This document shows, piece after piece, positions 7,995 to 58,511 of a stretch of 64,000 bases of DNA (position 1 is its first letter; every line of letters begins with the position of its first letter). The position numbers and the translations under genes were made by a program. Origin of the DNA: Bacilli bacterium (GTDB taxonomy: Bacteria > Bacillota_I > Bacilli_A > RF39 > UBA660); NCBI GenBank assembly GCA_016302935.1, contig JAEDMO010000001.1:141-64140 (forward strand), given 5' to 3'. A model generated the notes under the pieces. It was not told the DNA's origin, searched no databases, and worked only from the letters and a program-made list of their open reading frames with translations.

Positions 7995-8067
7995 ATAATT
8001 CCTCCTTACATTCTATTCTTACTTTATAATATTATCACAATGTGACATTTTTTTCAAGGTGAATAGA

Positions 8068-8090
8068 AAAAAAGTCCTAAATTTTAGGAT
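8068..8090 (-). terminator. Intrinsic terminator after the 74-aa gene
   Basis: tcctaaa/tttagga hairpin overlapping the stop codon, followed on the - strand by a T-run (an A-run on the + strand). Confidence 0.45.
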
Positions 8091-8308
8091 TTATAGATGA
8101 CTTTCTTTTTATTTTCTTCTTGTAGTCTAGCAAGATAATCTTTTTTTACTGTTATTGCAGAATGTATTAGTTTGTGGTCTTTATCATATTCTAAAATACT
8201 ACTTCTTACTGACTCTTCTTCTGTTTCAACTTCGTTATCATTTTCATCATAGTAAAATATGCAAGTGTATTCCCCGCCATTGGGAGTAGGTCCTTTAATT
8301 TCTTTCAT
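8084..8308 (-). CDS. Small acidic hypothetical protein (candidate immunity/partner of the upstream large protein)
   Basis: 74 aa. Starts 38 bp downstream of the 842-aa gene and is followed by a terminator. No recognisable family. Confidence 0.4.
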   Translation of the reverse strand: MKEIKGPTPNGGEYTCIFYYDENDNEVETEEESVRSSILEYDKDHKLIHSAITVKKDYLARLQEENKKKVIYKS

Positions 8309-8346
8309 GTTATCTTTTATTCCTTTCTTTTATTCAATTTTGCTAA

Positions 8347-41686: not shown

Positions 41687-41845
41687 AAAATTTCTTTTGG
41701 TTGGGTTATAATGATTATGGTTTTTAGTACTGTTTAGAATAGTTATAATTAGAAATATTTTGACTATAAGGAACGCGATAGCATTAAACTTGAAAAAATA
41801 TTATTACTATAAATTATGATAAAGTATTGCAAGATTATATAATAA

Positions 41846-41871
41846 AAAACTATCAGAAAAATGATAGTTTT
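41846..41871. terminator. Bidirectional intrinsic terminator between the PBP gene and the HerA-like gene
   Basis: aaaactatca / tgatagtttt stem with a gaaaaa loop, flanked by A- and T-runs. Confidence 0.55.
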
Positions 41872-41873
41872 TG

Positions 41874-43637
41874 TTATTTATTTAATTTATACATCCATTT
41901 TTCGTAGATGTTTGCACTGGCACTGCTTGGTTTTGGTGATGGCAGTTCCATTTTGACAATCATCGGCAGTTTCATCATTTTGCCAAAGGCTATACATGTT
42001 CCTGATTGAAGTGATTTTTGTTTTTCAATAATATCCGAGCTTATATTAGGAACCATTTTTTCAATGTAATCTAGGTCGGTAGGATGATTTATTTTGAATA
42101 TTAAGAAGTTAGAACATTGTGATAATACATTTTCTGATAGTTCTGTTGGTCTTTGGGTTATTAAATCAATAATAACGCCATATTTTCTACCTTCTTTGGC
42201 TATTCTTTCAAAGATATTATATCCCAGTGTTTGAATATCAAAGTCTTTTTGAACATATCTATGGGCTTCTTCTAACATGATATGGATAGGGAATGATCCT
42301 CTTTCTTGAAGACTTCTAGCAAATTTAAATATTAGTCTTGAATATATTTTTACTAGTGCTTTGGCCATTCTATCATCAATATCTTCTAAAACGAAGTTAA
42401 TTATTTGGCATCTTTTGTTTTCTTTTGTTATTATTAATTCATTGAAATATTGATTTAGAGTAATAAATCTATCATAGGCGAAGAATTTTTTATATGAGCT
42501 ATTGCATATTGTATGTAGTTTTACTTTTAGTGCTATTGCTTCGGCATAATATTTTTCGTTTAGTAATAATCCTTCTGAGATTAGAGTGAAGTTTAGAGCT
42601 TCTTCTAGGTTATCTAGTGTATAGAATACTGGTTCATATTCTTCATTCCACTTAGTATCTGGTTCTAAAAATCCTTCTATGTATTGAGTTACTAATAATC
42701 TTTCTACGAAATCTCCTTTAGAATCGATGTCAAAGCATTTTCTTAATTTTCTAGTATATCCTACTCCTTGAATTTCTACATCAAGATTTAGTTCTTTTGT
42801 TTTACAGGTAGTTAAGATGTTAAATATTTGGTCTCTTATTCTAGCTGATGTTTGATTGGTGTATAAAACCGATATTATAGCACTAGAGATTAGATGGTTT
42901 TTGTAGCGATGAGAATATTCATCATCCTTAGCAAAAGCACTTACATAAATAAGCATTTTATCGATAATATTAATTTGTGAATAATCGGTCACATCTAAGA
43001 GATTGGCAAAATCATCAGTTGTAAGATGCCATAGGGGTATTTTGATTAGTGGTGTTTTACTTTGATTAGTATTACTTGTAAACATTTTATAGTTAAAATT
43101 AGGGTTATATTCACTAATTTTAGAAAAAGCGTTGTCGTATTCGTTTGTTGAATTGAAAATAAATATATTAGAGTAAAAGGGAATAATATTTTTTTTGGTA
43201 AAGAGATTTTGAACAAGTCTAGAAACTCCAAATGTTTTGCCGGAACCTGTGTTACCAAATATTGCTGTGTGATTGGAAAACATATCGTTTATATCGATAT
43301 ATATTGGAGCGTTTTTATATAGTGGCGATAGGCCTAAAATCATATTGTTATCAGTTTCTGTACCAATTAGTAGTTTTAGTTCTTCGTCGTTAATTATTCT
43401 TATTTGGGAATTCAAAGATGGTTTTCTAATAATTCCACTTAAAAATTTATTGTTTATAAATTCACCTAAGAAATTTATTTTTACTTGATTTTGGTCAACT
43501 TCACTTATTTCTCCTAATATTTTTTTATCATTATCTTCAAATATTACATAATAATTTAAGATATCTTCACTGAACACATTGTTATCTATAATTACTAGAG
43601 CATTATTTTTATTGATACTTAAAATTTGTTTAAACAT
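41874..43637 (-). CDS. HerA/FtsK-like (DUF87-type) ATPase
   Basis: 587 aa. N-terminal HAS-barrel-like region, Walker A GNTGSGKT, Walker B-like HIMLEEAHRY and an ITQRP motif. Confidence 0.55.
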   Translation of the reverse strand: MFKQILSINKNNALVIIDNNVFSEDILNYYVIFEDNDKKILGEISEVDQNQVKINFLGEFINNKFLSGIIRKPSLNSQIRIINDEELKLLIGTETDNNMILGLSPLYKNAPIYIDINDMFSNHTAIFGNTGSGKTFGVSRLVQNLFTKKNIIPFYSNIFIFNSTNEYDNAFSKISEYNPNFNYKMFTSNTNQSKTPLIKIPLWHLTTDDFANLLDVTDYSQINIIDKMLIYVSAFAKDDEYSHRYKNHLISSAIISVLYTNQTSARIRDQIFNILTTCKTKELNLDVEIQGVGYTRKLRKCFDIDSKGDFVERLLVTQYIEGFLEPDTKWNEEYEPVFYTLDNLEEALNFTLISEGLLLNEKYYAEAIALKVKLHTICNSSYKKFFAYDRFITLNQYFNELIITKENKRCQIINFVLEDIDDRMAKALVKIYSRLIFKFARSLQERGSFPIHIMLEEAHRYVQKDFDIQTLGYNIFERIAKEGRKYGVIIDLITQRPTELSENVLSQCSNFLIFKINHPTDLDYIEKMVPNISSDIIEKQKSLQSGTCIAFGKMMKLPMIVKMELPSPKPSSASANIYEKWMYKLNK

Positions 43638-43651
43638 TTTTTCACCTCTTT

Positions 43652-44347
43652 TTATATTTTTTCAAATTTTACAGTTTCTCCAAGTCCTATCGCTTGACTT
43701 ATAGGAAGAGAAAAGCAAATTCCTTTTCCTTTAGTGTTTAGTCCTGTTGATTCTGTTATGGCCGCCATAACTTTATTTTTTAGTTTGTTTTCAATAACAA
43801 TTAGAGTTATATCTTTTTCCGGCTCTATTGAGAACCCTAAAAATCTAACAGCATCTTTATTTCCAAGTCCACTTCCTTTTATTAAGGTACCACCGGTTGC
43901 ACCATTTTTTTTAGCTACATTCATTACTGTTTCACTATAACCTTCTTCGGTAATGGTGATTATTAGATGATATGTATTTTGTCTAGCCATTTTTTTGTCC
44001 TCCTCAAATACATTGGTTTTTGTATATACATCAGCAAGATATTTTACTGAGCTACTGATTGGAATTGTGAAACTAATCCCGGTTCCAACTTCTTGCAATG
44101 ATAAGTTTTTCTTTAGTTGATATAATAGTTCTATTTCTAACTTATTTGGGATTATTGATAAATAAATCTGTTTTTTTACTTCATTTAGTCCAAAATAATC
44201 TAATAAACTGCTTGAGGCTGATCCGTATCCTGGAATTATATAATTGAAGTATAAATTATATTTTTTTATAATTTTGGTTATATCTTTTTGTTTGGTTTTG
44301 TCTGCTATAATAATTAGTAGTTTAATGTTATCTGGCATTTTTAACAC
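43652..44347 (-). CDS. Tandem PII-like (GlnB-fold) signal-transduction protein
   Basis: 231 aa as two ~110-aa halves. The second half carries GATGGTLIKGSGLG ... GKGICFSLPI, like PII proteins. Overlaps the upstream membrane-protein gene by 20 nt. Confidence 0.5.
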   Translation of the reverse strand: MLKMPDNIKLLIIIADKTKQKDITKIIKKYNLYFNYIIPGYGSASSSLLDYFGLNEVKKQIYLSIIPNKLEIELLYQLKKNLSLQEVGTGISFTIPISSSVKYLADVYTKTNVFEEDKKMARQNTYHLIITITEEGYSETVMNVAKKNGATGGTLIKGSGLGNKDAVRFLGFSIEPEKDITLIVIENKLKNKVMAAITESTGLNTKGKGICFSLPISQAIGLGETVKFEKI

Positions 44348-45830
44348 CCCATTTGTAATTAATTATTGTCTCATCAATAGTAAGTGTTGAAATACTTCTT
44401 TGTTTTTTTATTTTATATATTAGTCCTAATAATTGGATTGTTAAAATTGGAGATAAGGATACTAAGGCAACCATTCCAAAGGCATCACTAATGATATTAC
44501 CACCTAAAGCAGTTGTAGCTCCTATTGCAAGAGGCAGTAAGAAACTGGCGGTCATAGTTCCTGATGAGGCTCCTCCAGAATCAAAAGCAATAGAAGTAAA
44601 TACATTTGGAATAAAAAACGATAAAATAATCGAGATGAAGTAACCTGGAATAATAAACCAGAGAATTGATATACCGGTTGTTACTCTAGTTAGCGATAAT
44701 AAAACTGCAAGGGAAACTCCAACTGAAAGACAGAGCATAATTATTTTTTTAGGAATGCTTCCACCGGTAATACTCTCTATTTGATCTGTTAATACTTTTA
44801 CGGATGGCTCTGCTTGTACAATATAGAAACCTAATATGGCGCTTATAGGTAATAAAAGATAACTGTATTCAGATAACACTAAGGAATTTCCTATTAGATA
44901 GGCAATTTTTAGAAAGCCAATATTTGCTCCTACTAAAAATAATGTTAATCCTATTAAAATAACAAAAAGTCCTAAAGATAATTTTTTTAATTCTTTTTTA
45001 TTATATTTTTTAGTGATTATTTGATATATTATCAATACGGCAATGATAGGAATTATAGAGATTAATATATCAGAACCATAATTTAGAAATGCACCTTTAA
45101 ATAAAGATATTAAATTAGTACTTTCATTAATTTTGAAAATATAGTTACTTTTAAGTTCATAGAAAAGTCCCATTATTAATACTGTAATTATCGGTCCGAT
45201 TGAGCATATTCCTATCATTCCAAAACTGTCTTCATTGGCCTTTAAATCGTTACGAGTAGATATTAATCCTAACCCAAAGGATATAATAAGCGGAACACTA
45301 ATGGAACCAGTTGTAGCTCCCGCGGCATCAAAGGAAATAGCAATAAACTCTTTGGGAACAAAAAATAATAATATTAAAATAATACTATAGAATATTATTA
45401 GAATAGTATTAAATTTATATTTACGAAAAATACGATATGCTGATATCATTAGAAAAATACCTACACCGATACTGACTGTAATTATGAAAATTAAGTTAGG
45501 AATATTAGATAGCTGTCCTGATAAGATAATTAAATCTGGTTCTACAATAGTTACGGCAAAACCTAGAAGGAAACTGATTATTAAAATTATAGTCATTTTT
45601 TTACTTTTGAATACACTTTGACCAATTTCTTTTCCTAGAGGAATTAAGGATATATTAACTCCAAAGGAAAACATTGTCATTCCTATTATAATAAGGATAG
45701 AACTAATTAAAAACGACATTAAGTCTGGAAAGGATAATTTTAAAAATAAATTTAAAAAGAAAACAATAAAAATAATGGGATAGATTGTATCGAATGATTC
45801 TTTTAAGGCACCATATATTTTCTTTGCCAT
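44328..45830 (-). CDS. Tandem DUF1538-like membrane protein (partner of PII-like protein)
   Basis: 500 aa. Two homologous ~250-aa multi-TM halves, each with a D(A/S)(A/G)GA(T/S)(T/S)G(S/T) motif. Confidence 0.45.
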   Translation of the reverse strand: MAKKIYGALKESFDTIYPIIFIVFFLNLFLKLSFPDLMSFLISSILIIIGMTMFSFGVNISLIPLGKEIGQSVFKSKKMTIILIISFLLGFAVTIVEPDLIILSGQLSNIPNLIFIITVSIGVGIFLMISAYRIFRKYKFNTILIIFYSIILILLFFVPKEFIAISFDAAGATTGSISVPLIISFGLGLISTRNDLKANEDSFGMIGICSIGPIITVLIMGLFYELKSNYIFKINESTNLISLFKGAFLNYGSDILISIIPIIAVLIIYQIITKKYNKKELKKLSLGLFVILIGLTLFLVGANIGFLKIAYLIGNSLVLSEYSYLLLPISAILGFYIVQAEPSVKVLTDQIESITGGSIPKKIIMLCLSVGVSLAVLLSLTRVTTGISILWFIIPGYFISIILSFFIPNVFTSIAFDSGGASSGTMTASFLLPLAIGATTALGGNIISDAFGMVALVSLSPILTIQLLGLIYKIKKQRSISTLTIDETIINYKWGVKNAR

Positions 45831-45912
45831 ATTATCACCTTCCTATTATTATGTTTAGTATATCAAAAAAATTTAAAAAAATAAATAAAAAGAAGGAAAA
45901 AAACAAAAAAGA

Positions 45913-45941
45913 ATTGACAATGATTAAATTAACTTATATAA
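45913..45941 (+). promoter_or_regulatory. Consensus sigma-A promoter for rpmH
   Basis: TTGACA, 17 nt, TATAAT, about 40 nt upstream of the rpmH ATG. GGAGGTG RBS. Confidence 0.6.
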
Positions 45942-45981
45942 TATAGAAGAATTTTATTTGGGTTATATTGGAGGTGGAATT

Positions 45982-46104
45982 ATGAAGAGAACTTTTCAAC
46001 CTAATAATAGAAATAAAAAGAAAAAGCACGGTTTTTTTGCTCGTATAAAAGGTAGTGTACTTAATAAAAGAAGAGCTAAAGGTCGTAAAAAATTATGTGC
46101 ATAA
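45982..46104 (+). CDS. rpmH: 50S ribosomal protein L34
   Basis: 40 aa: [40 protein letters not shown]. Too short for the ORF track; I found it by eye. Confidence 0.9.
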
Positions 46105-46127
46105 TACCACGATTACGTGGTTTTTTG
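46105..46127 (+). terminator. Terminator/attenuator hairpin between rpmH and rnpA
   Basis: ccacg-atta-cgtgg hairpin followed by TTTTTTGTT. Confidence 0.45.
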
Positions 46128-46160
46128 TTATTTTGATAAAAGAAAGTATCGGTGATTTAA

Positions 46161-46484
46161 TTGAAAAAAAGGGATATTATTAAAAAAAATCAAGAATTTC
46201 AACATATTATTAATAATGGTAAGTTTGTTAAAAATAGATTTTTTTCGGTATATTTTGTTAATGCTGATAAATGTATGTATGGAATATCCGTTCCTAAAAA
46301 GACGGGTAATGCAGTTTTAAGAAATAAAATTAAGAGGCAAATTAAAAATATTATAGATCATAATAAAAAATATATTCAAAATAATAGACATTATGTTATA
46401 ATAATTAAGAGGAGTGTTTTAGATTTAAGTTATAAACAAAGTGAAGCTAATTTGTTGGATTTGTTTATGAAAATTAGTTATTAG
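46161..46484 (+). CDS. rnpA: Ribonuclease P protein component
   Basis: 107 aa. TTG start with a GGTGA RBS. Basic; the FSVYF ... RNKIKRQI pattern is typical of RnpA. Confidence 0.85.
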   Translation: MKKRDIIKKNQEFQHIINNGKFVKNRFFSVYFVNADKCMYGISVPKKTGNAVLRNKIKRQIKNIIDHNKKYIQNNRHYVIIIKRSVLDLSYKQSEANLLDLFMKISY

Positions 46485-46495
46485 AAGGAGATATT

Positions 46496-47425
46496 ATGAA
46501 AAAGAAAATTTTAATTTGTTTGATTTTGATATCTTTCATGTTAAGTGGGTGTACAAAACAACTAAAAGATAATGATGGAAAGGTAGTTCAAAATGAACTT
46601 ACCGGACAAACTCTTACTAAAAATATTTTGTGTAAGCCTACTAATGAAGATGTTATTAATCTTTATGAAAAATATAACGTTGATTTAAACAAGCTACCTA
46701 GTTGTGAAACTATGTCAGTTACAGATGGTGGCTACGAAGGTTTGTGGACTAGTATATTTGTAAAACCTTTAGCTTGGCTTATTATTCAGATTGGTAATTT
46801 GGTAAATAATTATGGACTTGCTGTTATTATTGCTACACTTCTTATTAGATTAGTGGTAATGCCTATTACTAAAAAAACGGCTGTTCAATCTGAAAATATG
46901 AAGCTGGCTAAAAAAGATTTGGACAGATTGGAAAAGAAATATGCGAATAGAACTTCACAAGAAGATCAAATGCAGAAAGCTCAAGAAATGATGATTATTT
47001 ATAAGAAATTTAATATTAATCCAATGTCTGGTTGTTTACTTGCGTTTATTCAATTACCTTTGTTTTTTGCTTTCTTAGAAGCAATTAATAGAGTACCTGC
47101 TATTTTTGAAAATAAATTTTTATCTCTTCAAATGGGTACTAGCGCTTGGATTGGTATAAGTAATGGTAATTATCTATATATTATTTTAATTGTTTTGATA
47201 ATTGGTACAACTTATTTCTCATTTAAAAATACAATGAATGATCAATCTGGACCAGCGGCAAAACAAATGAAAACAACATTATATATTATGTTAGGATTTA
47301 TTGCCTTTGCTTCATTTACTTTATCAGCGGCTATTGGTGTTTATTGGATAACTTCTAGTTTATTTACAATTGTTCAAAATCAATTAGTAAAAAGAAGGAA
47401 GGGGCGTAATAGTGATGTTATATAG
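46496..47425 (+). CDS. yidC: Membrane protein insertase YidC/Oxa1 family (lipoprotein form)
   Basis: 309 aa. Lipobox LSGC. Conserved 60-kDa inner-membrane insertase core. Confidence 0.9.
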   Translation: MKKKILICLILISFMLSGCTKQLKDNDGKVVQNELTGQTLTKNILCKPTNEDVINLYEKYNVDLNKLPSCETMSVTDGGYEGLWTSIFVKPLAWLIIQIGNLVNNYGLAVIIATLLIRLVVMPITKKTAVQSENMKLAKKDLDRLEKKYANRTSQEDQMQKAQEMMIIYKKFNINPMSGCLLAFIQLPLFFAFLEAINRVPAIFENKFLSLQMGTSAWIGISNGNYLYIILIVLIIGTTYFSFKNTMNDQSGPAAKQMKTTLYIMLGFIAFASFTLSAAIGVYWITSSLFTIVQNQLVKRRKGRNSDVI

Positions 47426-48023
47426 TTATGAAGCACAAAACAAGGAAGAGGCTATTAACAAGGCTTTAAATGATTTAAATACTACAAGAGAGAATTTACT
47501 TATTCAATCTATTGAAGAAATAAAAGGAATCGTTAAAAAAAAGGTAACTATTAAGGTTTTAAAATTTGATGAAGTAGTTAAATTTATCAAAGATACTTTA
47601 TACGATATTGCTAAGTATATTGGTATTGATATTAATTTAGAAGTTAGAAAAAGAGAAGATCAGATTACGATTAAAATGTTTTCAGATAATAACAATATTT
47701 TAATTGGTAAAGGTGGTCGCACTCTGATGGCTTTACAGACATATATTAAACAACTTCTTTATAACACTACTCAAGAAAAGATATCATTTGTTTTAGATGT
47801 AGAAAATTATAAAGAAAAAAGAATTAAAGGAATTGAATATTTAGCAAAGAAAATTGCAAAAGAAGTGGCTAATACTAAAGTAGATGTTACCTTGGATAGT
47901 ATGAATTCATACGAAAGAAGAATTGTTCATGAAGCTTTATCTAAGGATAGGTATGTATATACTGAAAGTATTGGAGAAGAACCTAATAGATGTGTAGTTA
48001 TTAAGTATAAAGAAACAAAATAG
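47412..48023 (+). CDS. jag: Jag/KhpB RNA-binding protein (KH + R3H)
   Basis: 203 aa. Jag N-terminal, KH and R3H (ERRIVHEAL) regions. Follows yidC. Confidence 0.8.
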   Translation: MMLYSYEAQNKEEAINKALNDLNTTRENLLIQSIEEIKGIVKKKVTIKVLKFDEVVKFIKDTLYDIAKYIGIDINLEVRKREDQITIKMFSDNNNILIGKGGRTLMALQTYIKQLLYNTTQEKISFVLDVENYKEKRIKGIEYLAKKIAKEVANTKVDVTLDSMNSYERRIVHEALSKDRYVYTESIGEEPNRCVVIKYKETK

Positions 48024-48099
48024 TTTCTTTTTTTATTGTAATTTTGTTATATAAGTAATATAATAAAGTTATAGTAGTATGTGATAGTTAGGAGAGTTT

Positions 48100-49419
48100 A
48101 TGAAGCAAAGATTATTGGAATTAATTGGTGAATATATCAATAATGAAAAGGAAAAAGAAAATTTTATAAAAGATATCGATGAATTAATTGGTGTTTGGGA
48201 TGAAAATTTACTTGATATTTTACAGAATAAACACAAAAATTTATTTGAGAGAATACTTAATAAAATAATACCTGATTTTTCTACTAATCAATCTTATCTT
48301 AATTCTATAGAAATATTTAAATCTTACCAACAATTTGGTGATATTGATATTAATCATAATTATTTGGTAGAAGTTAATAAATTTTTACTTTATTTAAAAA
48401 ATCTTGTTTTAGAAAAAAGAAAAAATCTTAAGATAAATGATACTACTGAACTTAATAAATTATATGATCAATTACAAAATGATGTGGAAGTAATAGATTA
48501 CGAATTATTATATAAATTTTTAAAGCAAATTGATTTGACAAAAGAAGAATATGAAAATATTAGTAATTATTTAAAAGAAAGACAAAGTCGTTTTAATAAA
48601 GAAGTTTTGTTATCACAAACTTTAAATAGTTCTCAATTGGAAGAAAATTTTGCTGTACTTTTAGATATTACTAGACAAATATTTATTTCTGAGATAGATA
48701 AATTGCCTAGTATTGATGATAAATTAAAAAAGATTGATGAATTACTTGCAAACGATATTTATGGAAACGTTGTAGATAAAACCAATGCTATTGAAATATT
48801 AAAAGCTATTATTAAAGATGAAATATTAGAAGAAGAAGCTTTGGTAAATGAACTTGATGATAATGAAAAAAAAGAAGTTTTGGATAATGTGAATTTGTTA
48901 TATAAATTAATTGTATATTTGAATGGCAAAGAAAAAGAATTTGACGAAAATGAAGAAATTCGCGATACATACTTTGACTATGAAAATCATAAAAATAAAA
49001 TTGTATATTTATCCAATAATATTTTAAAAGATATTGAAAGTATTGACGATTTTAAAACTTTAAAGGATTTATATGGTTTATTAATAGGTATTAAAGAGGG
49101 AAGAATTCCAGTTAAATCACATATGCAAAAAATGCAGATACCTAATCGTAAAATAAAAAAGATAAGACCTAATTCAAATAATTCACAAGCTAGAATTAAT
49201 TGTGAAATACTTGGAAATAACACATTTGGTATTGTCCTTATTAATGCTAAAAAAGATACAACAACAGATAAGTCTACTATAACTTCTATTAATGAAAGAT
49301 TAAAAATGTATAATCCGGATACAGTATTAGATTCTTTAGATATGGAAAAGCAAAAAGAATATGATAGAGAAGTATACGATTTAATTATGGGTAAGTTAAA
49401 TAAAAAAATGGCAAAGTAA
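48100..49419 (+). CDS. Hypothetical helical, acidic protein (no recognisable domain)
   Basis: 439 aa. Inserted between jag and mnmE. Long full-length ORF, but I recognise no motif. Confidence 0.4.
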   Translation: MKQRLLELIGEYINNEKEKENFIKDIDELIGVWDENLLDILQNKHKNLFERILNKIIPDFSTNQSYLNSIEIFKSYQQFGDIDINHNYLVEVNKFLLYLKNLVLEKRKNLKINDTTELNKLYDQLQNDVEVIDYELLYKFLKQIDLTKEEYENISNYLKERQSRFNKEVLLSQTLNSSQLEENFAVLLDITRQIFISEIDKLPSIDDKLKKIDELLANDIYGNVVDKTNAIEILKAIIKDEILEEEALVNELDDNEKKEVLDNVNLLYKLIVYLNGKEKEFDENEEIRDTYFDYENHKNKIVYLSNNILKDIESIDDFKTLKDLYGLLIGIKEGRIPVKSHMQKMQIPNRKIKKIRPNSNNSQARINCEILGNNTFGIVLINAKKDTTTDKSTITSINERLKMYNPDTVLDSLDMEKQKEYDREVYDLIMGKLNKKMAK

Positions 49420-49486
49420 TAATGCCTTTTTTTCTTGTACTTTAATTAAACTAGTGTTATAATCTTAAGAAAAAGGAGTTTTTTTT

Positions 49487-50836
49487 ATGAATGATACAAT
49501 TGTTGGAATATCAACTGCATTAGGAGTTGGTGCTATTTCTATAATAAGAGTTAGTGGTAGTGAAGCAATTAATATTGTCAATATGGTTTTTAAAGAAAAA
49601 AATTTAAATAACGTCGATACTCATACTATTCATTACGGACATATTTTTGATGGTGATGATGTTATAGATGAAGTTTTAGTTAGTGTGATGAAAAAACCAA
49701 AGTCTTATACAACGGAAGACGTAGTAGAAATTAATTGTCATGGTGGGATTGCTACTACTAATAAAATTCTAGAGTTATTAATAAAGAAAGGGTGTCGTTT
49801 GGCTGAACCTGGTGAATTTACTAAAAGAGCTTTTTTAAATGGTAGAATTGATTTAATTGAAGCTGATGGAATTATGAATTTAATTGAAGCTAAAAGTGAA
49901 ACTGCTAGGAAGATGGCAATTAATCAATTAAATGGGAATGTTTCTTTAATGATTAAAGATTTAAGAGATGATTTAGTCCAAGTTATTTCTAATATTGAAG
50001 TAAACATCGATTATCCTGAATATGACGATATTGAGGTAATAACCAATGAAAAAATATTACCTATTTTAAAACAAGTAAAAGACAAAATTATTAAAATTAT
50101 TAAATTAAGCGAAGATGGCAAATTGATAAAAGAAGGAATTAAAGTATGCTTAGTAGGTAGACCTAATGTCGGCAAAAGTAGTCTTCTTAATACCTTACTT
50201 GGCGAAAATAAGGCTATAGTTACTGATATTGCAGGTACTACTAGGGATATTGTAGAAGGTACTATTCAATTAGATGGTATTATTCTTAATTTAATTGATA
50301 CTGCTGGGATTAGAGATACTAATAATATAGTCGAAAAAATAGGTGTTGAAAAGAGTAAAGAAGCTATTTATAATTGTGATTTGGTAATATTAGTTTTAAA
50401 TAATAACGAGCATCTTACAGATGAAGATAGGCAATTACTTAAAATAATTGAAAATAAAACTAATATCATTGTAATTAATAAAATTGATTTAGATAAAAAA
50501 ATTGAAAGTATTGATTCAGCTAATGTTGTAGAAATAAGTACAAAAGATAATATTGGAATTGATAAATTAAAAAATAAAATTAAGGAATTATTTAATCTTG
50601 AAAAAATTGAGCAAAGTGATATGAACTATTTAACTAGCGCAAGAAGTATTGGGTTATTAAAAAAAGCTTGTGATATTATTTATAATGTAATTGATAAAAT
50701 TAACGATAATATAGAATTAGATTTATTAGAATTAGATATAAAAGAAGCTTGGAATATTCTTGGAGAAATAATTGGGGCTACTTATAAAGAAGAGCTATTG
50801 GATGAAATGTTTAAAAGATTTTGTTTAGGAAAATGA
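49487..50836 (+). CDS. mnmE: tRNA modification GTPase MnmE
   Basis: 449 aa. G-domain GRPNVGKSSL and the C-terminal CLGK tail. Confidence 0.95.
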   Translation: MNDTIVGISTALGVGAISIIRVSGSEAINIVNMVFKEKNLNNVDTHTIHYGHIFDGDDVIDEVLVSVMKKPKSYTTEDVVEINCHGGIATTNKILELLIKKGCRLAEPGEFTKRAFLNGRIDLIEADGIMNLIEAKSETARKMAINQLNGNVSLMIKDLRDDLVQVISNIEVNIDYPEYDDIEVITNEKILPILKQVKDKIIKIIKLSEDGKLIKEGIKVCLVGRPNVGKSSLLNTLLGENKAIVTDIAGTTRDIVEGTIQLDGIILNLIDTAGIRDTNNIVEKIGVEKSKEAIYNCDLVILVLNNNEHLTDEDRQLLKIIENKTNIIVINKIDLDKKIESIDSANVVEISTKDNIGIDKLKNKIKELFNLEKIEQSDMNYLTSARSIGLLKKACDIIYNVIDKINDNIELDLLELDIKEAWNILGEIIGATYKEELLDEMFKRFCLGK

Positions 50837-50849
50837 GGTGAGTAAATTT

Positions 50850-52673
50850 ATGAAGTATGAGGTTATAGTTGTTGGTGGAGGACATGCTGGTTGTGAAGCT
50901 GCTTTAGCTTGTGCTAGAAAAAATCATAGTACTTTACTTATAACCGGTAGAATAGAAAATATTGCAACAATGCCTTGTAATCCATCTATAGGTGGTTCTG
51001 CTAAAGGAATTGTTGTTAGAGAAATAGATGCTTTAGGCGGGGAAATGGGAAAAAATGCTGATAAATCTTTATTGCAAATGAAAATGCTTAATTCATCTAA
51101 AGGTCCTGCTGTTAGAAGTTTAAGATCACAAACTGACAAAATTACTTATCCACAAGAGATGTTGAAAACTTTAACTAATCAAGATAATTTAACTATATTA
51201 GAAGGAATTGTTGAAGATTTAATTGTAAATGATAATACTGTTTGTGGTGTTATTTTGGAAGATACGAGAAGGATAACTAGTGACGTTGTAATTTTGACAA
51301 CAGGCACTTATTTAAAAGCAGATATTTTAATTGGTTCAGAAAGAAGAAGAGAAGGTCCTCATGGAGAAAAGCCTTCTAATCACTTAAGTGATAATTTAAA
51401 AAAATATGGTTTTGATATATTAAGGCTTAAAACAGGTACTCCACCTAGAATAGATAAAAATAGTATTGACTTTAGTAAGACAAAAATAGAGTATGGAGAT
51501 AATCTGGCTTATACATTTAGTTTTGATAATGAACCACTTTATGATGTTACAAAACAAATACCTTGTCATTTAATATATACAAACGAAAAAACACATAAAA
51601 TTATATTTGATAATTTAGATAAATCAAGTATGTATGGTGGATATATAAAGGATGCTGTGGGTCCTAGATATTGTCCTTCTATTGAAGATAAATTAGTTAA
51701 ATTTAAAGATAAAGAAAGACATCAATTATTTTTAGAACCAGAAAGTATTTATTATGATGATATATATATACAAGGGTTTTCTACTAGTATGCCTAGAGAT
51801 GTGCAAGAAGAAATGGTTCACAGTTTACCTGGATTAGAGAAAGCTAAAATATTAAAATATGCTTATGCTATTGAATATGATGCAATATATCCTACACAAT
51901 TAAATCAATCTTTAGAAACTAAAATTATTAATAATTTGTTTACTGCTGGTCAGATTAATGGTACATCTGGTTATGAAGAAGCGGCTTGTCAAGGATTAAT
52001 AGCGGGGATAAATGCTTCATTAAAACTGGAAGGAAAAAATCCATTAATATTAAAAAGGAACGAAGCTTATATTGGTGTTTTAATCGATGATCTAGTAACA
52101 AAAGGTACTGAAGAACCATATCGTTTATTAACTTCAAGGGCAGAATACAGGTTGCTTTTAAGAAACGATAATGCCGATCTAAGACTAAGGGAATATGGTT
52201 ATAATGTTGGACTTATAAATCAAGAAAAATATAATAGATTAATTGACAAAAAAAATAAAATAAATGAACTAATAACTTATTTTAAAGAAACGAAAATAAA
52301 AATTGATGGTAAAAGCGATTATATTTATAATATTTTAAAAAGACCTGAAATTAATATTGATTTTTTAAATGAAAAATATGACTTAAATTTAAAATATTCT
52401 AAAGAAGTTATGGAACAAGTAGAAATACAAATTAAGTATGAAGGTTATATCGATAAAACAGAAAAAGAAGCCAAAAAAATGTTAAAATTTGAAGAAAAAC
52501 AAATACCTTATGACATTGATTATGACAAAATTTCTAATTTAGCTACTGAAGCAAGACAAAAATTAAATAAAATTAGACCTACTTCAATTGGGATGGCAAG
52601 TCGAATAAGTGGGGTTAATCCTTCGGATATAGCTATTTTATTAGTATATTTAAAGAGGTATTATAATGAGTGA
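50850..52673 (+). CDS. mnmG: tRNA uridine 5-carboxymethylaminomethyl modification enzyme MnmG (GidA)
   Basis: About 607 aa. YEVIVVGGGHAGCEAA FAD-binding motif. I moved the start to the ATG at 50850 (GAGGTG RBS); the track ORF begins 4 codons earlier at a GTG. Confidence 0.95.
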   Translation: MKYEVIVVGGGHAGCEAALACARKNHSTLLITGRIENIATMPCNPSIGGSAKGIVVREIDALGGEMGKNADKSLLQMKMLNSSKGPAVRSLRSQTDKITYPQEMLKTLTNQDNLTILEGIVEDLIVNDNTVCGVILEDTRRITSDVVILTTGTYLKADILIGSERRREGPHGEKPSNHLSDNLKKYGFDILRLKTGTPPRIDKNSIDFSKTKIEYGDNLAYTFSFDNEPLYDVTKQIPCHLIYTNEKTHKIIFDNLDKSSMYGGYIKDAVGPRYCPSIEDKLVKFKDKERHQLFLEPESIYYDDIYIQGFSTSMPRDVQEEMVHSLPGLEKAKILKYAYAIEYDAIYPTQLNQSLETKIINNLFTAGQINGTSGYEEAACQGLIAGINASLKLEGKNPLILKRNEAYIGVLIDDLVTKGTEEPYRLLTSRAEYRLLLRNDNADLRLREYGYNVGLINQEKYNRLIDKKNKINELITYFKETKIKIDGKSDYIYNILKRPEINIDFLNEKYDLNLKYSKEVMEQVEIQIKYEGYIDKTEKEAKKMLKFEEKQIPYDIDYDKISNLATEARQKLNKIRPTSIGMASRISGVNPSDIAILLVYLKRYYNE

Positions 52674-53367
52674 GAAAGTGTTTTTAGATGAATTAGAAAA
52701 AATTGGTATAAAACTAGATACTAAACAAATTAATCAATTTGCAACTTATTTTCAATTACTTATCGAATGGAATGAGAAAATTAATTTAACTTCTATTGTT
52801 GAAAAAGAACAAGTTTATCTTAAACATTTTTATGATTCTTTAACAATTGCTAAAATATGTAATTTAGATAATCAAAAATTATGTGACATTGGGACTGGTG
52901 CTGGTTTTCCTGGGATTCCTTTAAAAATTGTTTTTCCTAACTTGAAGGTAACTTTAGTTGATTCTTTAGGGAAAAGATGTACATTTTTAAATGAAGTAAT
53001 TGAAAAACTTAATCTTGAGGATATAGAAGTAGTAAATGAAAGAGCTGAAGTATTCTCAATTGAAAACGTAGAAAAGTATGATATAGTAACTGCTAGGGCT
53101 GTAGCACCTTTATCACAATTATTAGAAATTGCTATATGTGCAGTAAAAATTAATGGTATCTTTATAGCAATGAAAACTAAAAATAGCGATGAAATTTTAT
53201 ATTTAGACAATTGTTTAAATAAATTATCATTGACACTTAACAAAAAAATTGAATTTCTCTTACCATTTGAATGTAGCAATAGACTTTTAATTTCTTTTAA
53301 AAAAAATGAAAGAACTAATAAAAAATATCCTAGAAAATATAATTTAATTAAAAAAAATCCACTCTAA
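52666..53367 (+). CDS. rsmG: 16S rRNA (guanine527-N7)-methyltransferase RsmG (GidB)
   Basis: 233 aa. DIGTGAGFPGIPL SAM-binding motif. Confidence 0.9.
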   Translation: MSEKVFLDELEKIGIKLDTKQINQFATYFQLLIEWNEKINLTSIVEKEQVYLKHFYDSLTIAKICNLDNQKLCDIGTGAGFPGIPLKIVFPNLKVTLVDSLGKRCTFLNEVIEKLNLEDIEVVNERAEVFSIENVEKYDIVTARAVAPLSQLLEIAICAVKINGIFIAMKTKNSDEILYLDNCLNKLSLTLNKKIEFLLPFECSNRLLISFKKNERTNKKYPRKYNLIKKNPL

Positions 53368-53448
53368 ATTATTTCCCGGGAAATAATTTACTCGGGAAAT
53401 AATTTTATTTCCCGTCTTTTTTGTTTGGGAAATAGAATTATTTCCTAG
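53365..53448. repeat. Cluster of three inverted repeats sharing the half-site GGGAAATAA
   Basis: A 26-bp perfect palindrome taaattatttcccgggaaataattta at 53365-53390; cgggaaataa-tt-ttatttcccg at 53393-53414; ggaaata-gaat-tatttcc at 53428-53445. The last two are each followed by a T-run and so could act as terminators. Confidence 0.6.
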
Positions 53449-53525
53449 TTTTTTGTCATTTTTCTTGTTTTTTTGACAAATATATTGTATTATAATATTG
53501 TATATAATAAAAGAATAAAGAGAGG

Positions 53526-54977
53526 GTGAAAATTATGAATTTAGGAAAAGAAATATCATATATCAAAATTAGTGATATAATCCCTAACAGATTTCAACCA
53601 AGGCTTACTTTTGATGAGAATGAGCTAAATGAATTGGTAGCTTCAATAAAACTGCACGGAATAATTCAGCCTTTGGTTTTAAGACAAATTGGGGATAAGT
53701 ATGAAATAATTGCTGGTGAAAGAAGATATAAAGCAGCAGTTAAAGCTGGATTAACCGAAGTACCTGCTATTATTACTGTTCTGAATGATAAAGAAAGTGC
53801 CGAAATTGCTGTTGTGGAAAATATTCAAAGAAAATCTTTATCGGCGATTGAAGAAGCAAAATCTTATAAAAAATTATTGGATTTAGGACAATTAACTCAA
53901 GATCAGTTAGCTCTTAGAATGGGAAAAAGTCAATCTAATGTAGCAAATAAACTTAGATTACTTAGTTTGGATGGAGAAGTTCAAAATGCTTTACTAGTTA
54001 ATAAAATATCTGAAAGACATGCAAGAAGTTTACTTCAATTAAAAGATTTAAATAAACAAAAAGAAATTTTGAATAGAATTATTAACGAAAGGTTAACAGT
54101 TAAACAAACAGATGATATTATAAAAGATTATTTAAATAATATTAACAATTATAATGAAGAAAAAGAAGAAGAAATTAAAATGATTTCTGAAAAAGAAGTA
54201 ACACCTATTAATAATATAAACAAAGTTAATGATGAACAGGTTAATATAATTAATCACACACCTTCAATTAATCCAAATTTAAGTGATAATAATGTTATTA
54301 ATTTAGATTTATTAAATGGTGATAATATTTCTAATATGGAAATTAATGATAATATTCAAAATGCTTTAAAAAATTTGGATATAGTTGATACTAAATCAGA
54401 TGTATTTAATGATACTGAACCAGTAGTTGAAGATAAAACTCAAGTATTAGATATTAATAAAATTAAAGAAGTGGCTCAAGATATTAATAAACCTAAAGAT
54501 TTACCTAATTTTGATGATTTATTAAAATCTGATTTACCTAAAAATGAAGATAATACTAACAATAAAAATTCGATTTTTAATCTTAATAATAATAAATTTG
54601 TACCAAGTTTTAGTGAATCTACTACAATCGATAGTAGTAATTCACTAAATAATGAGGCGAAAATTGTCGATAATCCTTTATTTAATAATCAATCTAATGA
54701 TGAATTTAATAATATTATTAAACCATTAGAAATATCAACTATTGAACCATCCGATGAGATAAATAATATTCCTTTAGTTCAAAAATTTGATTTACCAAAA
54801 TTAGAGCCGATTAATACAAATCAACAATTTAGGTCAACAAATTCTATTAACCAAGCAGTAAATATACTAAGAGATAGTGTTAAAAAAATTGAGGATTTAA
54901 ATTATGATGTTGATTGTGAAGAATTGGATTTACCTGGAGAATATCAATTTATTATAAAAATTATTCAAAAAGACTGA
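53526..54977 (+). CDS. parB: ParB/Spo0J/Noc-family protein with long low-complexity C-terminal extension
   Basis: 483 aa. N-terminal ~200 aa is ParB-like (IIPNRFQPR ..., GERRYKAA, HTH). The C-terminal ~280 aa is N/D/I/K-rich low complexity. No parA gene is adjacent. Confidence 0.75.
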   Translation: MKIMNLGKEISYIKISDIIPNRFQPRLTFDENELNELVASIKLHGIIQPLVLRQIGDKYEIIAGERRYKAAVKAGLTEVPAIITVLNDKESAEIAVVENIQRKSLSAIEEAKSYKKLLDLGQLTQDQLALRMGKSQSNVANKLRLLSLDGEVQNALLVNKISERHARSLLQLKDLNKQKEILNRIINERLTVKQTDDIIKDYLNNINNYNEEKEEEIKMISEKEVTPINNINKVNDEQVNIINHTPSINPNLSDNNVINLDLLNGDNISNMEINDNIQNALKNLDIVDTKSDVFNDTEPVVEDKTQVLDINKIKEVAQDINKPKDLPNFDDLLKSDLPKNEDNTNNKNSIFNLNNNKFVPSFSESTTIDSSNSLNNEAKIVDNPLFNNQSNDEFNNIIKPLEISTIEPSDEINNIPLVQKFDLPKLEPINTNQQFRSTNSINQAVNILRDSVKKIEDLNYDVDCEELDLPGEYQFIIKIIQKD

Positions 54978-54998
54978 TATTTAAGTCTTTTTTTTTTA
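54967..54998 (+). terminator. Intrinsic terminator after parB
   Basis: aagact-gatattta-agtctt hairpin followed by T9-10. Confidence 0.55.
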
Positions 54999-55019
54999 TA
55001 TTTAATGTATTTAAAATAA

Positions 55020-55181
55020 ATATCCACATGTATATTTTTATTTTTTATTGTTTTCCACAGGCTTTTGTGAATTATTTTTCTTATTTTTATTATAAAATTT
55101 TAATTATCCACAGTTTTCCACAATGGTGTTGATATATTTTTGCACATTGTTTATATATAAAATTAATAAATTTGTGGATAA
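55020..55181. promoter_or_regulatory. oriC DnaA-box cluster upstream of dnaA
   Basis: TTATCCACA at 55104-55112 and its reverse complement TGTGGATAA at 55173-55181. One-mismatch boxes at 55020-55028 (aTATCCACA), 55051-55059 and 55114-55122 (TTTTCCACA). AT-rich flanks. Confidence 0.8.
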
Positions 55182-55330
55182 AATAGCTAATTATATTAAT
55201 TATTTAAAAAATAATTGTTCATATGTTGTTTAAAAGTTGTGAAAAAGATGTGAAATGTGTAAAATGACCTTTATTTTTAGGGAAAAATAAGTTAAAATGT
55301 TGTTAGAATGAAATGAAGGAGGCTATTATT

Positions 55331-56698
55331 ATGAACAGTGTTAATGTTGATATAATATGGAATAATTTTTTAGATAAAATTAAAGAACAGATTTCTTCTA
55401 TTTCATTTGAGGCTTGGTTTAAAGATACTAAACTATATAAAATCAATGGAAACACTGCAATAATCATTGTTCCCCTTAATTTACATAAAAAGCATTTAAC
55501 AGAAAATTACATTACATTAATTGAAGAAACATTTAATAATTTAACAGGTACTAATTTTAATTTTTCTTTTTTGCTAGAAGATGAGGTGGAAAATGAGGAA
55601 AATGTCGAAGTTAAAAGTGAAAACGGTGGTATTCCTTCATATAACTCAATAGATGCAAATTTAAATCCAAATTATACATTTGATTCTTTTATTAAAGGGG
55701 AAAGTAATAAATTCGCATATACAGCTTCATTATCTGTTGCAGAAAAACCTGGTAAAGCTTATAACCCATTATTTTTATATGGCAAAAGTGGACTTGGAAA
55801 AACACATCTTATGCACGCGATTGGTAACTATATTTTAAATAATTCAAATTTAAAGGTATTATATGTTACTAGTGACGATTTTGTTAACGATTTTATTAGC
55901 GTTATTAGAAATAAAGATAAGGATAATTTTGAATTAATAAATACATTTAAAAGTAAATATAGAAATATTGATGTTTTACTTATAGATGATATTCAATTTT
56001 TAGAAAATGCTACTGCTACTCAACAAGAATTTTTTCATACATTTAACGAGTTATATAATTCTAACAAACAAATTATTATTGCATCTGATAGATCTGTTAA
56101 TGATTTGAAACTACTTGAAGAAAGGTTAAGAACAAGATTTGCTTGGGGACTTACCGCAAATATTTTTCCACCTGATTATGACTTAAGAATGAGTATTATA
56201 AGAAAGAAAATAATGTATAATGAATCTGCAAAAGATGTTCCGGATGAAGTTATTGAATATATTGCTAATAGTTTTGATTCTGATGTTAGACAATTAGAGG
56301 GGGCTATTACTAGAGTTTTTGCCTATGCTTTAATGATGAATAATGGAATTGTAGATTTAAATACTGCAATTGATGCATTGAAAGATCAACTAACTACCAA
56401 ATCGGCCTTTAAAAATGATATTCATAGAATTCAACAGATTGTAAGTGATTATTTTCAAATAAAAATTGAAGATTTAACAGGTAAAAAAAGGACTAAAAAT
56501 ATTGCATTTCCTAGACAAATTGCTATATACCTGTGTAGAAATATGACTAATGAATCATTTCCTAGAATAGGAAGTTATTTTGGTGGAAGAGATCATTCTA
56601 CTATTATGCATTCTTGTGATAAAATTGCCGATAGTTTAAAAAATAATGAGCAGGTTAAAGATATAATAAAAGAACTTAAAAAACTTTTATCCACATAG
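55331..56698 (+). CDS. dnaA: Chromosomal replication initiator protein DnaA
   Basis: AAA+ Walker A GKSGLGKTHL, a sensor-2/Arg-finger region and a C-terminal DNA-binding domain. I placed the start at the ATG at 55331 (AAGGAGG RBS, 8-nt spacing); the track ORF begins 6 codons earlier, inside that RBS. Confidence 0.95.
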   Translation: MNSVNVDIIWNNFLDKIKEQISSISFEAWFKDTKLYKINGNTAIIIVPLNLHKKHLTENYITLIEETFNNLTGTNFNFSFLLEDEVENEENVEVKSENGGIPSYNSIDANLNPNYTFDSFIKGESNKFAYTASLSVAEKPGKAYNPLFLYGKSGLGKTHLMHAIGNYILNNSNLKVLYVTSDDFVNDFISVIRNKDKDNFELINTFKSKYRNIDVLLIDDIQFLENATATQQEFFHTFNELYNSNKQIIIASDRSVNDLKLLEERLRTRFAWGLTANIFPPDYDLRMSIIRKKIMYNESAKDVPDEVIEYIANSFDSDVRQLEGAITRVFAYALMMNNGIVDLNTAIDALKDQLTTKSAFKNDIHRIQQIVSDYFQIKIEDLTGKKRTKNIAFPRQIAIYLCRNMTNESFPRIGSYFGGRDHSTIMHSCDKIADSLKNNEQVKDIIKELKKLLST

Positions 56699-56799
56699 AT
56701 ACTTAATTTTCAATAACTTTATTTACATATTTTCAACATGTAAATTAAAAAAAATGTGCATAAAATAAGAGTAAATTGGAGTTATCCACATTATCCACA
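56687..56799. promoter_or_regulatory. oriC DnaA-box cluster between dnaA and dnaN
   Basis: Perfect TTATCCACA at 56687-56695 (overlapping the dnaA stop), 56782-56790 and 56791-56799. AT-rich region follows. Confidence 0.8.
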
Positions 56800-56843
56800 G
56801 TATAATAATCAATAAAATATTATATAAGAAAGAAGGAATTAAA

Positions 56844-57956: not shown

Positions 57957-58046
57957 TACGACAAAAATCAACAAAATTTGACAAATATATGTGCTTTAAT
58001 AAACAGCATATATATTTTTTTTAATATATATTGGAAGGAGGTAAAT

Positions 58047-58511
58047 ATGAATAATTCTTATATAATTAATAAAAACACTTTATTAATTAAGTCAACTATT
58101 GATAAAAAAGGTGTAGTAATATTTGATGATAAAAAAACTATCAATTTAGACATTATTTTACACAAATTTATTAATGATTGTTGCAAATATTATGGTAATT
58201 CATATAAAGGAAAATTTGAAAGTAGTAAAATATATTTAAACAAGAATATAAAGTTACCTATTATTATAAGTGAAAATTACGAATTAATTATTTTTCCTAC
58301 TAATTCAATTAGAAATCCTAATTGTATATGGATTGTTTATAATAATATAGATAATATCAAAAAATTGGATAATAAAAATACGATTATTATTTTTAAAAAT
58401 GGTATTGAATTTTGTGTTAATTGTTCTTATAATGTTATAAATAACCAGATTAATAATTGTGCGAGATTAAAGTGTGTTTTAATTGAGAGAAAAAGAGCGC
58501 TTAATGTGTAA
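58047..58511 (+). CDS. ComK-family competence transcription factor-like protein
   Basis: CKYYGNSYKGKFESSKIYLNKNIKLPIIISENYELIIFPTNSIRNPNCIWIVYNNI aligns with B. subtilis ComK CRFFGSSYAGRKAGTYEVTKISHKPPIMVDPSNQIFLFPTLSSTRPQCGWISHVHV. Start placed at the ATG at 58047, 5-6 nt after a GGAAGGAGGT RBS; the track ORF starts 23 codons earlier. Confidence 0.6.
   Translation: MNNSYIINKNTLLIKSTIDKKGVVIFDDKKTINLDIILHKFINDCCKYYGNSYKGKFESSKIYLNKNIKLPIIISENYELIIFPTNSIRNPNCIWIVYNNIDNIKKLDNKNTIIIFKNGIEFCVNCSYNVINNQINNCARLKCVLIERKRALNV

Follow-up and report, generated by a model that had tools for sequence, protein, structure and literature searches.

PII-family regulators such as GlnK and PotN are encoded beside the transporters that they control, AmtB and PotABCD, respectively. 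Regulation of an adjacent transporter by a PII-like protein has likewise been described for SbtB and SbtA (PMC8352866). In the DUF1538 family, UmpAB of Halomonas zhaodongensis is a heterodimer of two DUF1538 proteins for which Na+(Li+,K+)/H+ antiport was shown in E. coli (PMC5484666), and among the HerA-type ATPases the Thermus protein HepA, presented by its authors as occurring in all sequenced Thermus strains, has roles in DNA repair and transfer (PMC5448004). Here, we analyzed a locus from a Bacilli bacterium (GTDB lineage Bacteria; Bacillota_I; Bacilli_A; RF39; UBA660) in which genes of these three kinds lie side by side. The locus is part of a stretch of 64,000 nucleotides (nt), termed the window (assembly GCA_016302935.1, contig JAEDMO010000001.1, positions 141 to 64,140), and comprises three co-oriented open reading frames (ORFs) on the minus strand, 44328..45830 (500 amino acids, aa), 43652..44347 (231 aa from a GTG) and 41874..43637 (587 aa), encoding a fused double-DUF1538 membrane protein, a tandem PII-like protein and an orphan HerA-family ATPase. 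The original prediction, made from the sequence alone, had assigned these three families, which was borne out by Pfam, structure models and Foldseek, and had proposed an operon coupling the three products. Based on the comparison of related loci, we conclude that the locus is very probably a composite of two evolutionary, and probably also functional, units: a transporter/PII pair and an independent core HerA.

The survey of HerA orthologues comprised 101 loci, which fall into 82 clusters at 90% identity and were collected from one genome per species (15 loci), from metagenome contigs by profile (80 loci) and by exact look-ups. In only three of these clusters (L001, L005/L108–L110 and L106) are the DUF1538 and PII genes located upstream of herA, and their HerA proteins are 83–85% identical to that of the window; with HerA at least 83% identical in all of them, the three-gene order is not conserved beyond close relatives. 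The other 79 clusters lack the pair. Six homologues of the tandem PII-like protein (44–51% identity; L018, L021, L022, L023, L111 and L112) represent six independent contexts outside the window's clade, and at all six loci a gene for a ~500-aa double-DUF1538 protein abuts or overlaps the PII gene upstream. None of these six pairs is followed by herA; the downstream genes are mutually unrelated, encoding an unknown protein, LtaS, a response regulator and others. These two counts support the composite reading, and with the ATPase unlinked in relatives the proposed coupling of HerA to the pair was not sustained. Comparative genomics thus splits the three-part system into two unrelated units, leaving it of little weight.

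The order of the double-DUF1538 gene followed by the tandem PII gene was invariant in every context examined, comprising the six outgroup loci and the window's clade, in agreement with the earlier view of the PII-like protein as a partner of the membrane protein beside it. This pattern across loci argues that the two genes form a widespread, conserved two-gene transporter/PII module. No description of a DUF1538–PII pairing was found in the literature on DUF1538, UmpAB and tandem or fused PII proteins. At loci that do not belong to the window's clade, genes of the cell envelope frequently come after the pair, encoding an LtaS-type sulfatase (L021, 6710-8662) as well as Amidase_3/LysM and NAGPA-domain proteins (L023/L024; L022, L111), a possible hint of the transporter being connected to the physiology of the wall or of teichoic acids.

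The membrane protein (44328..45830, minus strand) combines a UmpA-like and a UmpB-like half in one chain of 500 aa. It matches Pfam DUF1538 (PF07556) in two stretches with an E-value of 1.4e-122 and 407 bits against a cut-off of 22.6, and its two halves are 31% identical (E=6e-28), consistent with the internal duplication noted previously. Against the NCBIfam models for UmpA and UmpB (NF041627 and NF041628), the protein scored 171 bits versus a cut-off of 490 and 136 versus 500, respectively, and thereby did not reach the equivalog level. By analogy with UmpAB, we regard it as a putative fused UmpA–UmpB-type cation/proton transporter.

The ORF of the middle protein extends to GTG 44347, whereas from ATG 44338, the start used by homologues and gene calls, the gene (43652..44338, minus strand) encodes a single-chain tandem PII-like protein of 228 aa. 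Pfam P-II (PF00543) matched the C-terminal half only (residues 128–220; 32.1 bits versus a cut-off of 25, 1.6e-7), which keeps the Gly-rich signatures G-x-x-G-x-T...G-x-G and G-K-G-I-C-F (cf. GDGKIF). The N-terminal half has diverged beyond the reach of Pfam and is tied to PII by the internal repeat only, the two halves being 27% identical (E=3e-11), so that this duplication, too, could be verified. The AlphaFold model of the monomer, based on 38 homologues (pLDDT 80.7), exhibits two beta-alpha-beta-beta-alpha-beta units with a low-confidence loop at the T-loop position (residues 42–51), and Foldseek aligned single PII units with PotN (7o4x), GlnZ, GlnK, SbtB (6ntb) and CPII at a probability of 1.0 and a TM-score of ~0.75. 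Furthermore, the profile of the family matches the PII chain 9p1x by sequence (E=7e-4); this best PII sequence match belongs to a methanogen nitrogenase–PII complex, which is not relevant here. Together, the modeled units confirmed the predicted PII-like ferredoxin fold for the middle protein. The tandem chain implies a non-canonical PII assembly, as a canonical homotrimer would not arise in the usual manner.

The first unit is composed of a fused UmpA/UmpB-type DUF1538 transporter and, translationally coupled to it, a tandem PII-like protein in a single chain. By analogy with GlnK–AmtB, SbtB–SbtA and PotN–PotABCD, the latter most likely senses a ligand and gates its neighbor: it would bind an adenine nucleotide or another small metabolite and dock on the cytoplasmic face of the transporter, tuning or plugging the ion flux. 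The transported substrate would be a monovalent cation exchanged for protons, as inferred from UmpAB. It is quite possible, if short of probable, that the two-gene module is real and is not a Na+/H+-type antiporter, the fused DUF1538 protein moving instead another solute and the tandem PII-like protein sensing this solute or a second messenger such as cyclic di-AMP (c-di-AMP). Consistent with such a role, the UmpA and UmpB scores amount to about one third of the equivalog cut-offs, UmpAB is the only DUF1538 pair ever assayed, by complementation in E. coli (PMC5484666), and PII-like proteins regulate chemically diverse transporters, the structural neighbors here including PotN, SbtB (the regulator of the bicarbonate transporter SbtA) and GlnK/GlnZ; the cell-envelope genes (LtaS, amidases and LysM proteins) often lying downstream of the pair elsewhere would fit as well. 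Against it stands the lack of positive evidence for another substrate. Scanned against Rfam at gathering thresholds, the whole window returned nothing, and hence no riboswitch, leader or other RNA element pointing to a ligand of the transporter module. A cation/proton exchanger controlled by its PII-like neighbor stays our preferred reading of the first unit.

The third gene (41874..43637, minus strand) encodes an orphan HerA-family P-loop ATPase of 587 aa, which matches Pfam HerA/DUF87 (PF01935) at 3.8e-20. The HAS-barrel and the GSGKT, LEEAH and TQRP motifs listed in the original prediction were all recovered, with Walker A (GNTGSGKT) at residues 128–135, Walker B (LEEAH) at 455–459 and TQRP, with the arginine finger, at 494–497, where G131-S-G-K134, E456-E457-x-H459 and Q495-R496-P497 are invariant across HerA homologues in two alignments. 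The AlphaFold model (pLDDT 85.9) shows an N-terminal HAS-type beta-barrel with strands spanning residues 2–81. Sequence matches in the PDB were the HerA chains 9c1m, 8xau, 8wiv and 4d2i, and full-length Foldseek alignments were obtained exclusively with HerA chains (TMq 0.56–0.75), the top one being 8yhx with a TMq of 0.75 and 20% identity. The NCBIfam equivalogs for HerA repair proteins were matched at 93–127 bits versus cut-offs of 800–970. As only ~15 full-length representatives at ≥33% identity are present among 1.84 billion cluster representatives, the orthologous subfamily is compact and lineage-restricted. Compared with the same genomes, HerA is 67–73% identical, DnaA 65–77% and DnaN 66–69%, and within the three-gene clade HerA is the most conserved protein (83%), followed by PII (69%) and DUF1538 (60%). 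Judged from these identities, HerA is as conserved as DnaA and DnaN in the lineage, pointing to constraint at a housekeeping level.

The gene neighborhoods of herA differ markedly from that in the window. For 14 clusters with HerA at 66–74% identity, herA is a stand-alone gene followed, after a spacer of 240–470 nt rich in DnaA boxes, by dnaA-dnaN-comK-recF-gyrB, with either rpmH (of a divergent rpmH-rnpA-yidC-jag block) or an LtaS-type gene upstream. A location directly upstream of a DnaA-box cluster and dnaA was observed in L002–L004, L007, L014, L016, L017 and L026–L036, and in L016 herA (7001-8767) has its own extended −10 element and ribosome binding site (RBS), the spacer to dnaA (9120-10472) being full of DnaA boxes (8780-9070). 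We know of no description of a HerA motor at oriC in a Bacilli lineage. More distant orthologues (43–52% identity), making up 22–23 clusters, are embedded in the order ftsY-ylxM-herA-ffh with gaps of 2–25 nt, associating them with genes of the signal recognition particle (SRP). This order is exhibited by L061 (4596-9079), also by L041, L042, L052, L070, L073 and L075, and by ~20 other clusters; in L061 an unannotated ORF of 1,137 aa, of SMC-like size, lies upstream. In further contexts, sepF-divIVA come after herA, or ftsK precedes it at a distance of 12 nt (L012, 3310-4193; L087, L096, L103, L105; L013, 694-4743), and other lineages show various housekeeping genes around herA. The neighbors annotated by Pfam comprise DnaA, DnaN, ComK, RecF, FtsY, YlxM, Ffh, RecX, SepF, DivIVA, FtsK, ThiF, GH31, M16 peptidases and a YqeH-like GTPase. 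NurA was absent from the annotated neighbors of herA in the window and the related loci, genes elsewhere in the genome lying outside this scope.

Many of the SRP-linked HerA orthologues (L008, 7001-9073; L006, 2083-4128; L011, 7001-9790; L048/L049) carry low-complexity C-terminal tails rich in Pro, Gln and Asn with 100–340 extra residues, and the tails in L008 and L006 end in a common acidic motif, ...SLNIDE[IV]IN[GA]S[ED]EE, that resembles a peptide for partner docking. The HerA of the window has no such tail.

Taken together, the neighborhoods at dnaA/oriC, between ftsY and ffh, and beside ftsK or sepF-divIVA suggest a connection of HerA to chromosome and division biology. The second unit would be an orphan HerA ring ATPase, a vertically inherited core gene of a lineage of uncultured low-GC gut Bacilli that is independent of the first unit; whereas its fold and motifs are evident, its nucleic-acid substrate and housekeeping role are at the level of most likely, with a translocase acting in chromosome maintenance or repair as the favored assignment. 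Tentatively, the subfamily might be a lineage-specific core motor for chromosome maintenance that was ancestrally positioned at oriC, a view that is likelier and less radical than a functional capture of HerA by the DUF1538/tandem-PII module. A HerA without nuclease or effector partner, conserved like DnaA and encoded at oriC/dnaA or in an SRP operon, hints at a housekeeping role of HerA in Firmicutes-type bacteria.

Comparison of the gene orders suggests how the two units came together. In the nearest outgroups, herA reads into the DnaA boxes and dnaA, and the rpmH-rnpA-yidC-jag block diverges from it. In the window, the DUF1538, PII and herA genes read in one direction and, divergent from them, rpmH-rnpA-yidC-jag-X-mnmE-mnmG-rsmG-parB-like gene, the DnaA boxes and dnaA-dnaN-comK-recF-gyrB in the other. 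Two events would account for the difference. On the branch to the window's clade, the two-gene module would have been inserted into the rpmH–herA spacer, replacing the promoter region of herA; the distance between the PII gene and herA in the clade is only 14–18 nt, including an RBS, and offers no room for a promoter or terminator. Subsequently, an inversion of the block from herA and rpmH to parB would have carried herA ~9 kb away from the DnaA-box origin and dnaA. The DnaA-box clusters are located at 55020-55181 and 56687-56799, on either side of dnaA (55313..56698), and the three-gene block is therefore 9–11 kb from this origin rather than immediately next to it, as had been stated. The GC skew as well as the AT skew follows gene orientation, flipping at ~40–46 kb, whereas the DnaA boxes lie at 55–57 kb; skew was not used for placing the origin.

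Compared with relatives and with the common gene order of Firmicutes, the rpmH-rnpA-yidC-jag-mnmE-mnmG-rsmG-parB block (window 45982-56800) is inverted, with rpmH distal and the ParB-like gene abutting the DnaA boxes. Were these boxes (55.0–56.8 kb) the site of the origin, ~9 kb of essential genes would be oriented head-on to replication. The ParB-like protein (53526-54977, plus strand) comprises 483 aa, with ParB_N and helix-turn-helix (HTH) domains covering residues 9–202 and ~280 C-terminal residues without a domain assignment, and there is no ParA/Soj gene next to its gene in the window. A ComK-family gene (Pfam 6.9e-33) is located between dnaN and recF across the lineage (17 loci; window 57978-58511, plus strand; L002 11832-12290; L016 11838-12305). 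Between jag and mnmE, a conserved ORF of ~438 aa without a Pfam domain was observed (window 48100-49419, plus strand; L016 3351-4664), for which one relative showed a weak Gp49 match.

Within the window, the three genes are tightly packed. The DUF1538 and PII genes overlap by 20 nt from GTG 44347 and by 11 nt from ATG 44338, the same 11-nt overlap recurring in the relatives L108–L110, and a gap of 14 nt separates the PII gene from herA. The 20-nt overlap and 14-nt gap reported originally are exact for the GTG start, and the operon-like packing and the divergence from rpmH (45982..46104, plus strand; 151 nt from the start of the DUF1538 gene) were confirmed. Each gene is preceded by a purine-rich RBS, AGGAAGGTG ahead of the ATG of the DUF1538 gene and AGAGGTG inside the 14-nt gap for herA. 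Upstream of the DUF1538 gene, a consensus scan yielded a promoter-like site, TTTAAA-18-CATAAT (45848..45877, minus strand; 9 of 12 matches), which is weak evidence in an AT-rich genome and lies within the 151-nt divergent spacer that also holds the rpmH promoter, a perfect TTGACA-17-TATAAT read from the sequence (45914-45942, plus strand). Beginning 2 nt past the herA stop, a hairpin with an 11-bp stem and a U-tract (41837..41872, minus strand; fold −9.8 kcal/mol, z = −5.0 versus shuffles) is the only element of the block's minus strand that convincingly resembles a terminator: the scan found nothing between the three genes, and its one minus-strand match within the block (45320-45303, inside the DUF1538 gene) is devoid of a T-rich tail. 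With one RBS per gene, the short gap and the terminal hairpin only, the sequence is compatible with one transcript, and judged by sequence the three genes look like a single transcription unit, although a further promoter may lie within the PII gene. Tight spacing is nevertheless weak evidence for coupling, since 17 of the 43 same-strand neighbor pairs in the window are ≤20 nt apart, including the unrelated recF–gyrB and argS with its neighbor. The coupling hypothesis is left unsupported, because this spacing was its only evidence and is unremarkable in the window, and because the ATPase is unlinked in relatives. The GC content of the module (28–29%) compares with 27.7% for the window and 22–33% for all related loci, giving no sign of a recent foreign origin, and each of the three genes occurs only once in the window.

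We consider it improbable that a genuine three-component system exists in the clade, in which HerA was recruited to a PII-regulated DUF1538 transporter, a combination described nowhere; in such a system, for example, the PII-like protein could signal the status of energy or ions to HerA, or HerA could power or assemble the membrane complex. The co-orientation, the 11–20-nt overlap, the 14-nt gap, the single terminal hairpin and the lack of space for a herA promoter are what such a system would show, and the arrangement is kept in at least four species-level lineages (the window, L001, L005/L108 and L106), the linkage having lasted through considerable divergence with herA apparently having lost its own promoter. 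However, besides the counts of HerA clusters and outgroup pairs given above and the commonness of tight packing in the window, the HerA of the clade has neither gained nor lost a domain and keeps every invariant residue of its dnaA-linked orthologues, and the same logic of adjacency would couple HerA to SRP genes (22 clusters) and to dnaA (14 clusters).

Least of all do we expect HerA to serve in anti-phage defence, as the ATPase component of a system like Sir2-HerA or DUF4297-HerA with its neighbors as unconventional effector: antiphage HerA proteins are indeed its best structural and sequence matches (8yhx, 8xau, 9c1m and 8wiv) and the PADLOC HerA model PDLC04102 matched at 3e-94, but the identity to solved antiphage HerAs is only ~20%, the NCBIfam antiphage-HerA equivalogs were matched at 141–144 bits versus cut-offs of 800–850, no Sir2, DUF4297 or nuclease partner is located beside herA in the window or among the 101 loci with annotated neighbors, and herA is flanked in the window by the PII gene and a penicillin-binding protein (PBP) gene and at other loci by dnaA, rpmH, ylxM, ffh or sepF, the stable housekeeping synteny and DnaA-like conservation being unlike patchy, fast-evolving defence genes. 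The stable synteny and the lack of a Sir2, DUF4297 or NurA neighbor argue likewise against a classical HerA–NurA role, despite the strong PADLOC match. The PADLOC scan matched generic HerA models only and gave no partner proteins, and we therefore rejected the defence reading.

Several observations weigh against the separation into a transporter/PII pair and an independent HerA, or against the roles assigned to them. The three genes stay tightly linked through divergence, the DUF1538 proteins being 60–63% identical among clade members, and there may be selection for co-expression within the window's clade, where we consider a shared transcript to be probably an accident of insertion. The survey covered loci, not whole genomes, and the genomes with a dnaA-linked herA may carry a DUF1538–PII pair elsewhere or may lack it. 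The blocks in which HerA resides also happen to be those with the most stable synteny in Firmicutes. Moreover, the transporter function derives from one characterised family member, with the NCBIfam equivalog cut-offs far from reached.

Compared with known transporter/PII systems, the pair resembles GlnK–AmtB, SbtB–SbtA and PotN–PotABCD in that the gene for a PII-fold protein directly follows that of a membrane transporter, to which it is translationally coupled, with conserved adjacency; it differs in that the PII unit is doubled within one chain and the partner is a DUF1538 protein. With the DUF1538–tandem PII pair, the paradigm of a PII protein plugging the neighboring transporter would reach a new family of transporters as well as a PII architecture that is not trimeric. 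With UmpAB, the membrane protein shares the Pfam family and both of the homologous DUF1538 units that UmpAB needs, whereas these units are separate proteins in UmpAB and are fused here into one 500-aa chain scoring far under the NCBIfam equivalog cut-offs. The UmpAB study mentions no PII protein, its cloned fragment stopping at umpB and the downstream region not being shown (PMC5484666). Finally, the ATPase has the full-length HerA fold in common with the HerA that resects DNA ends together with NurA in archaea and bacteria, with the HerA of the antiphage systems Sir2-HerA and DUF4297-HerA, and with Thermus HepA: a beta-barrel at the N-terminus is followed by a RecA-like core that carries Walker A/B and the arginine of TQRP, and a helical insertion is present as well. 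In contrast to the first three, it lacks an adjacent NurA, Sir2 or DUF4297 and is a single gene in housekeeping synteny, with an identity of ~20%. Among the described cases, Thermus HepA looks nearest in lifestyle to the HerA of the window.

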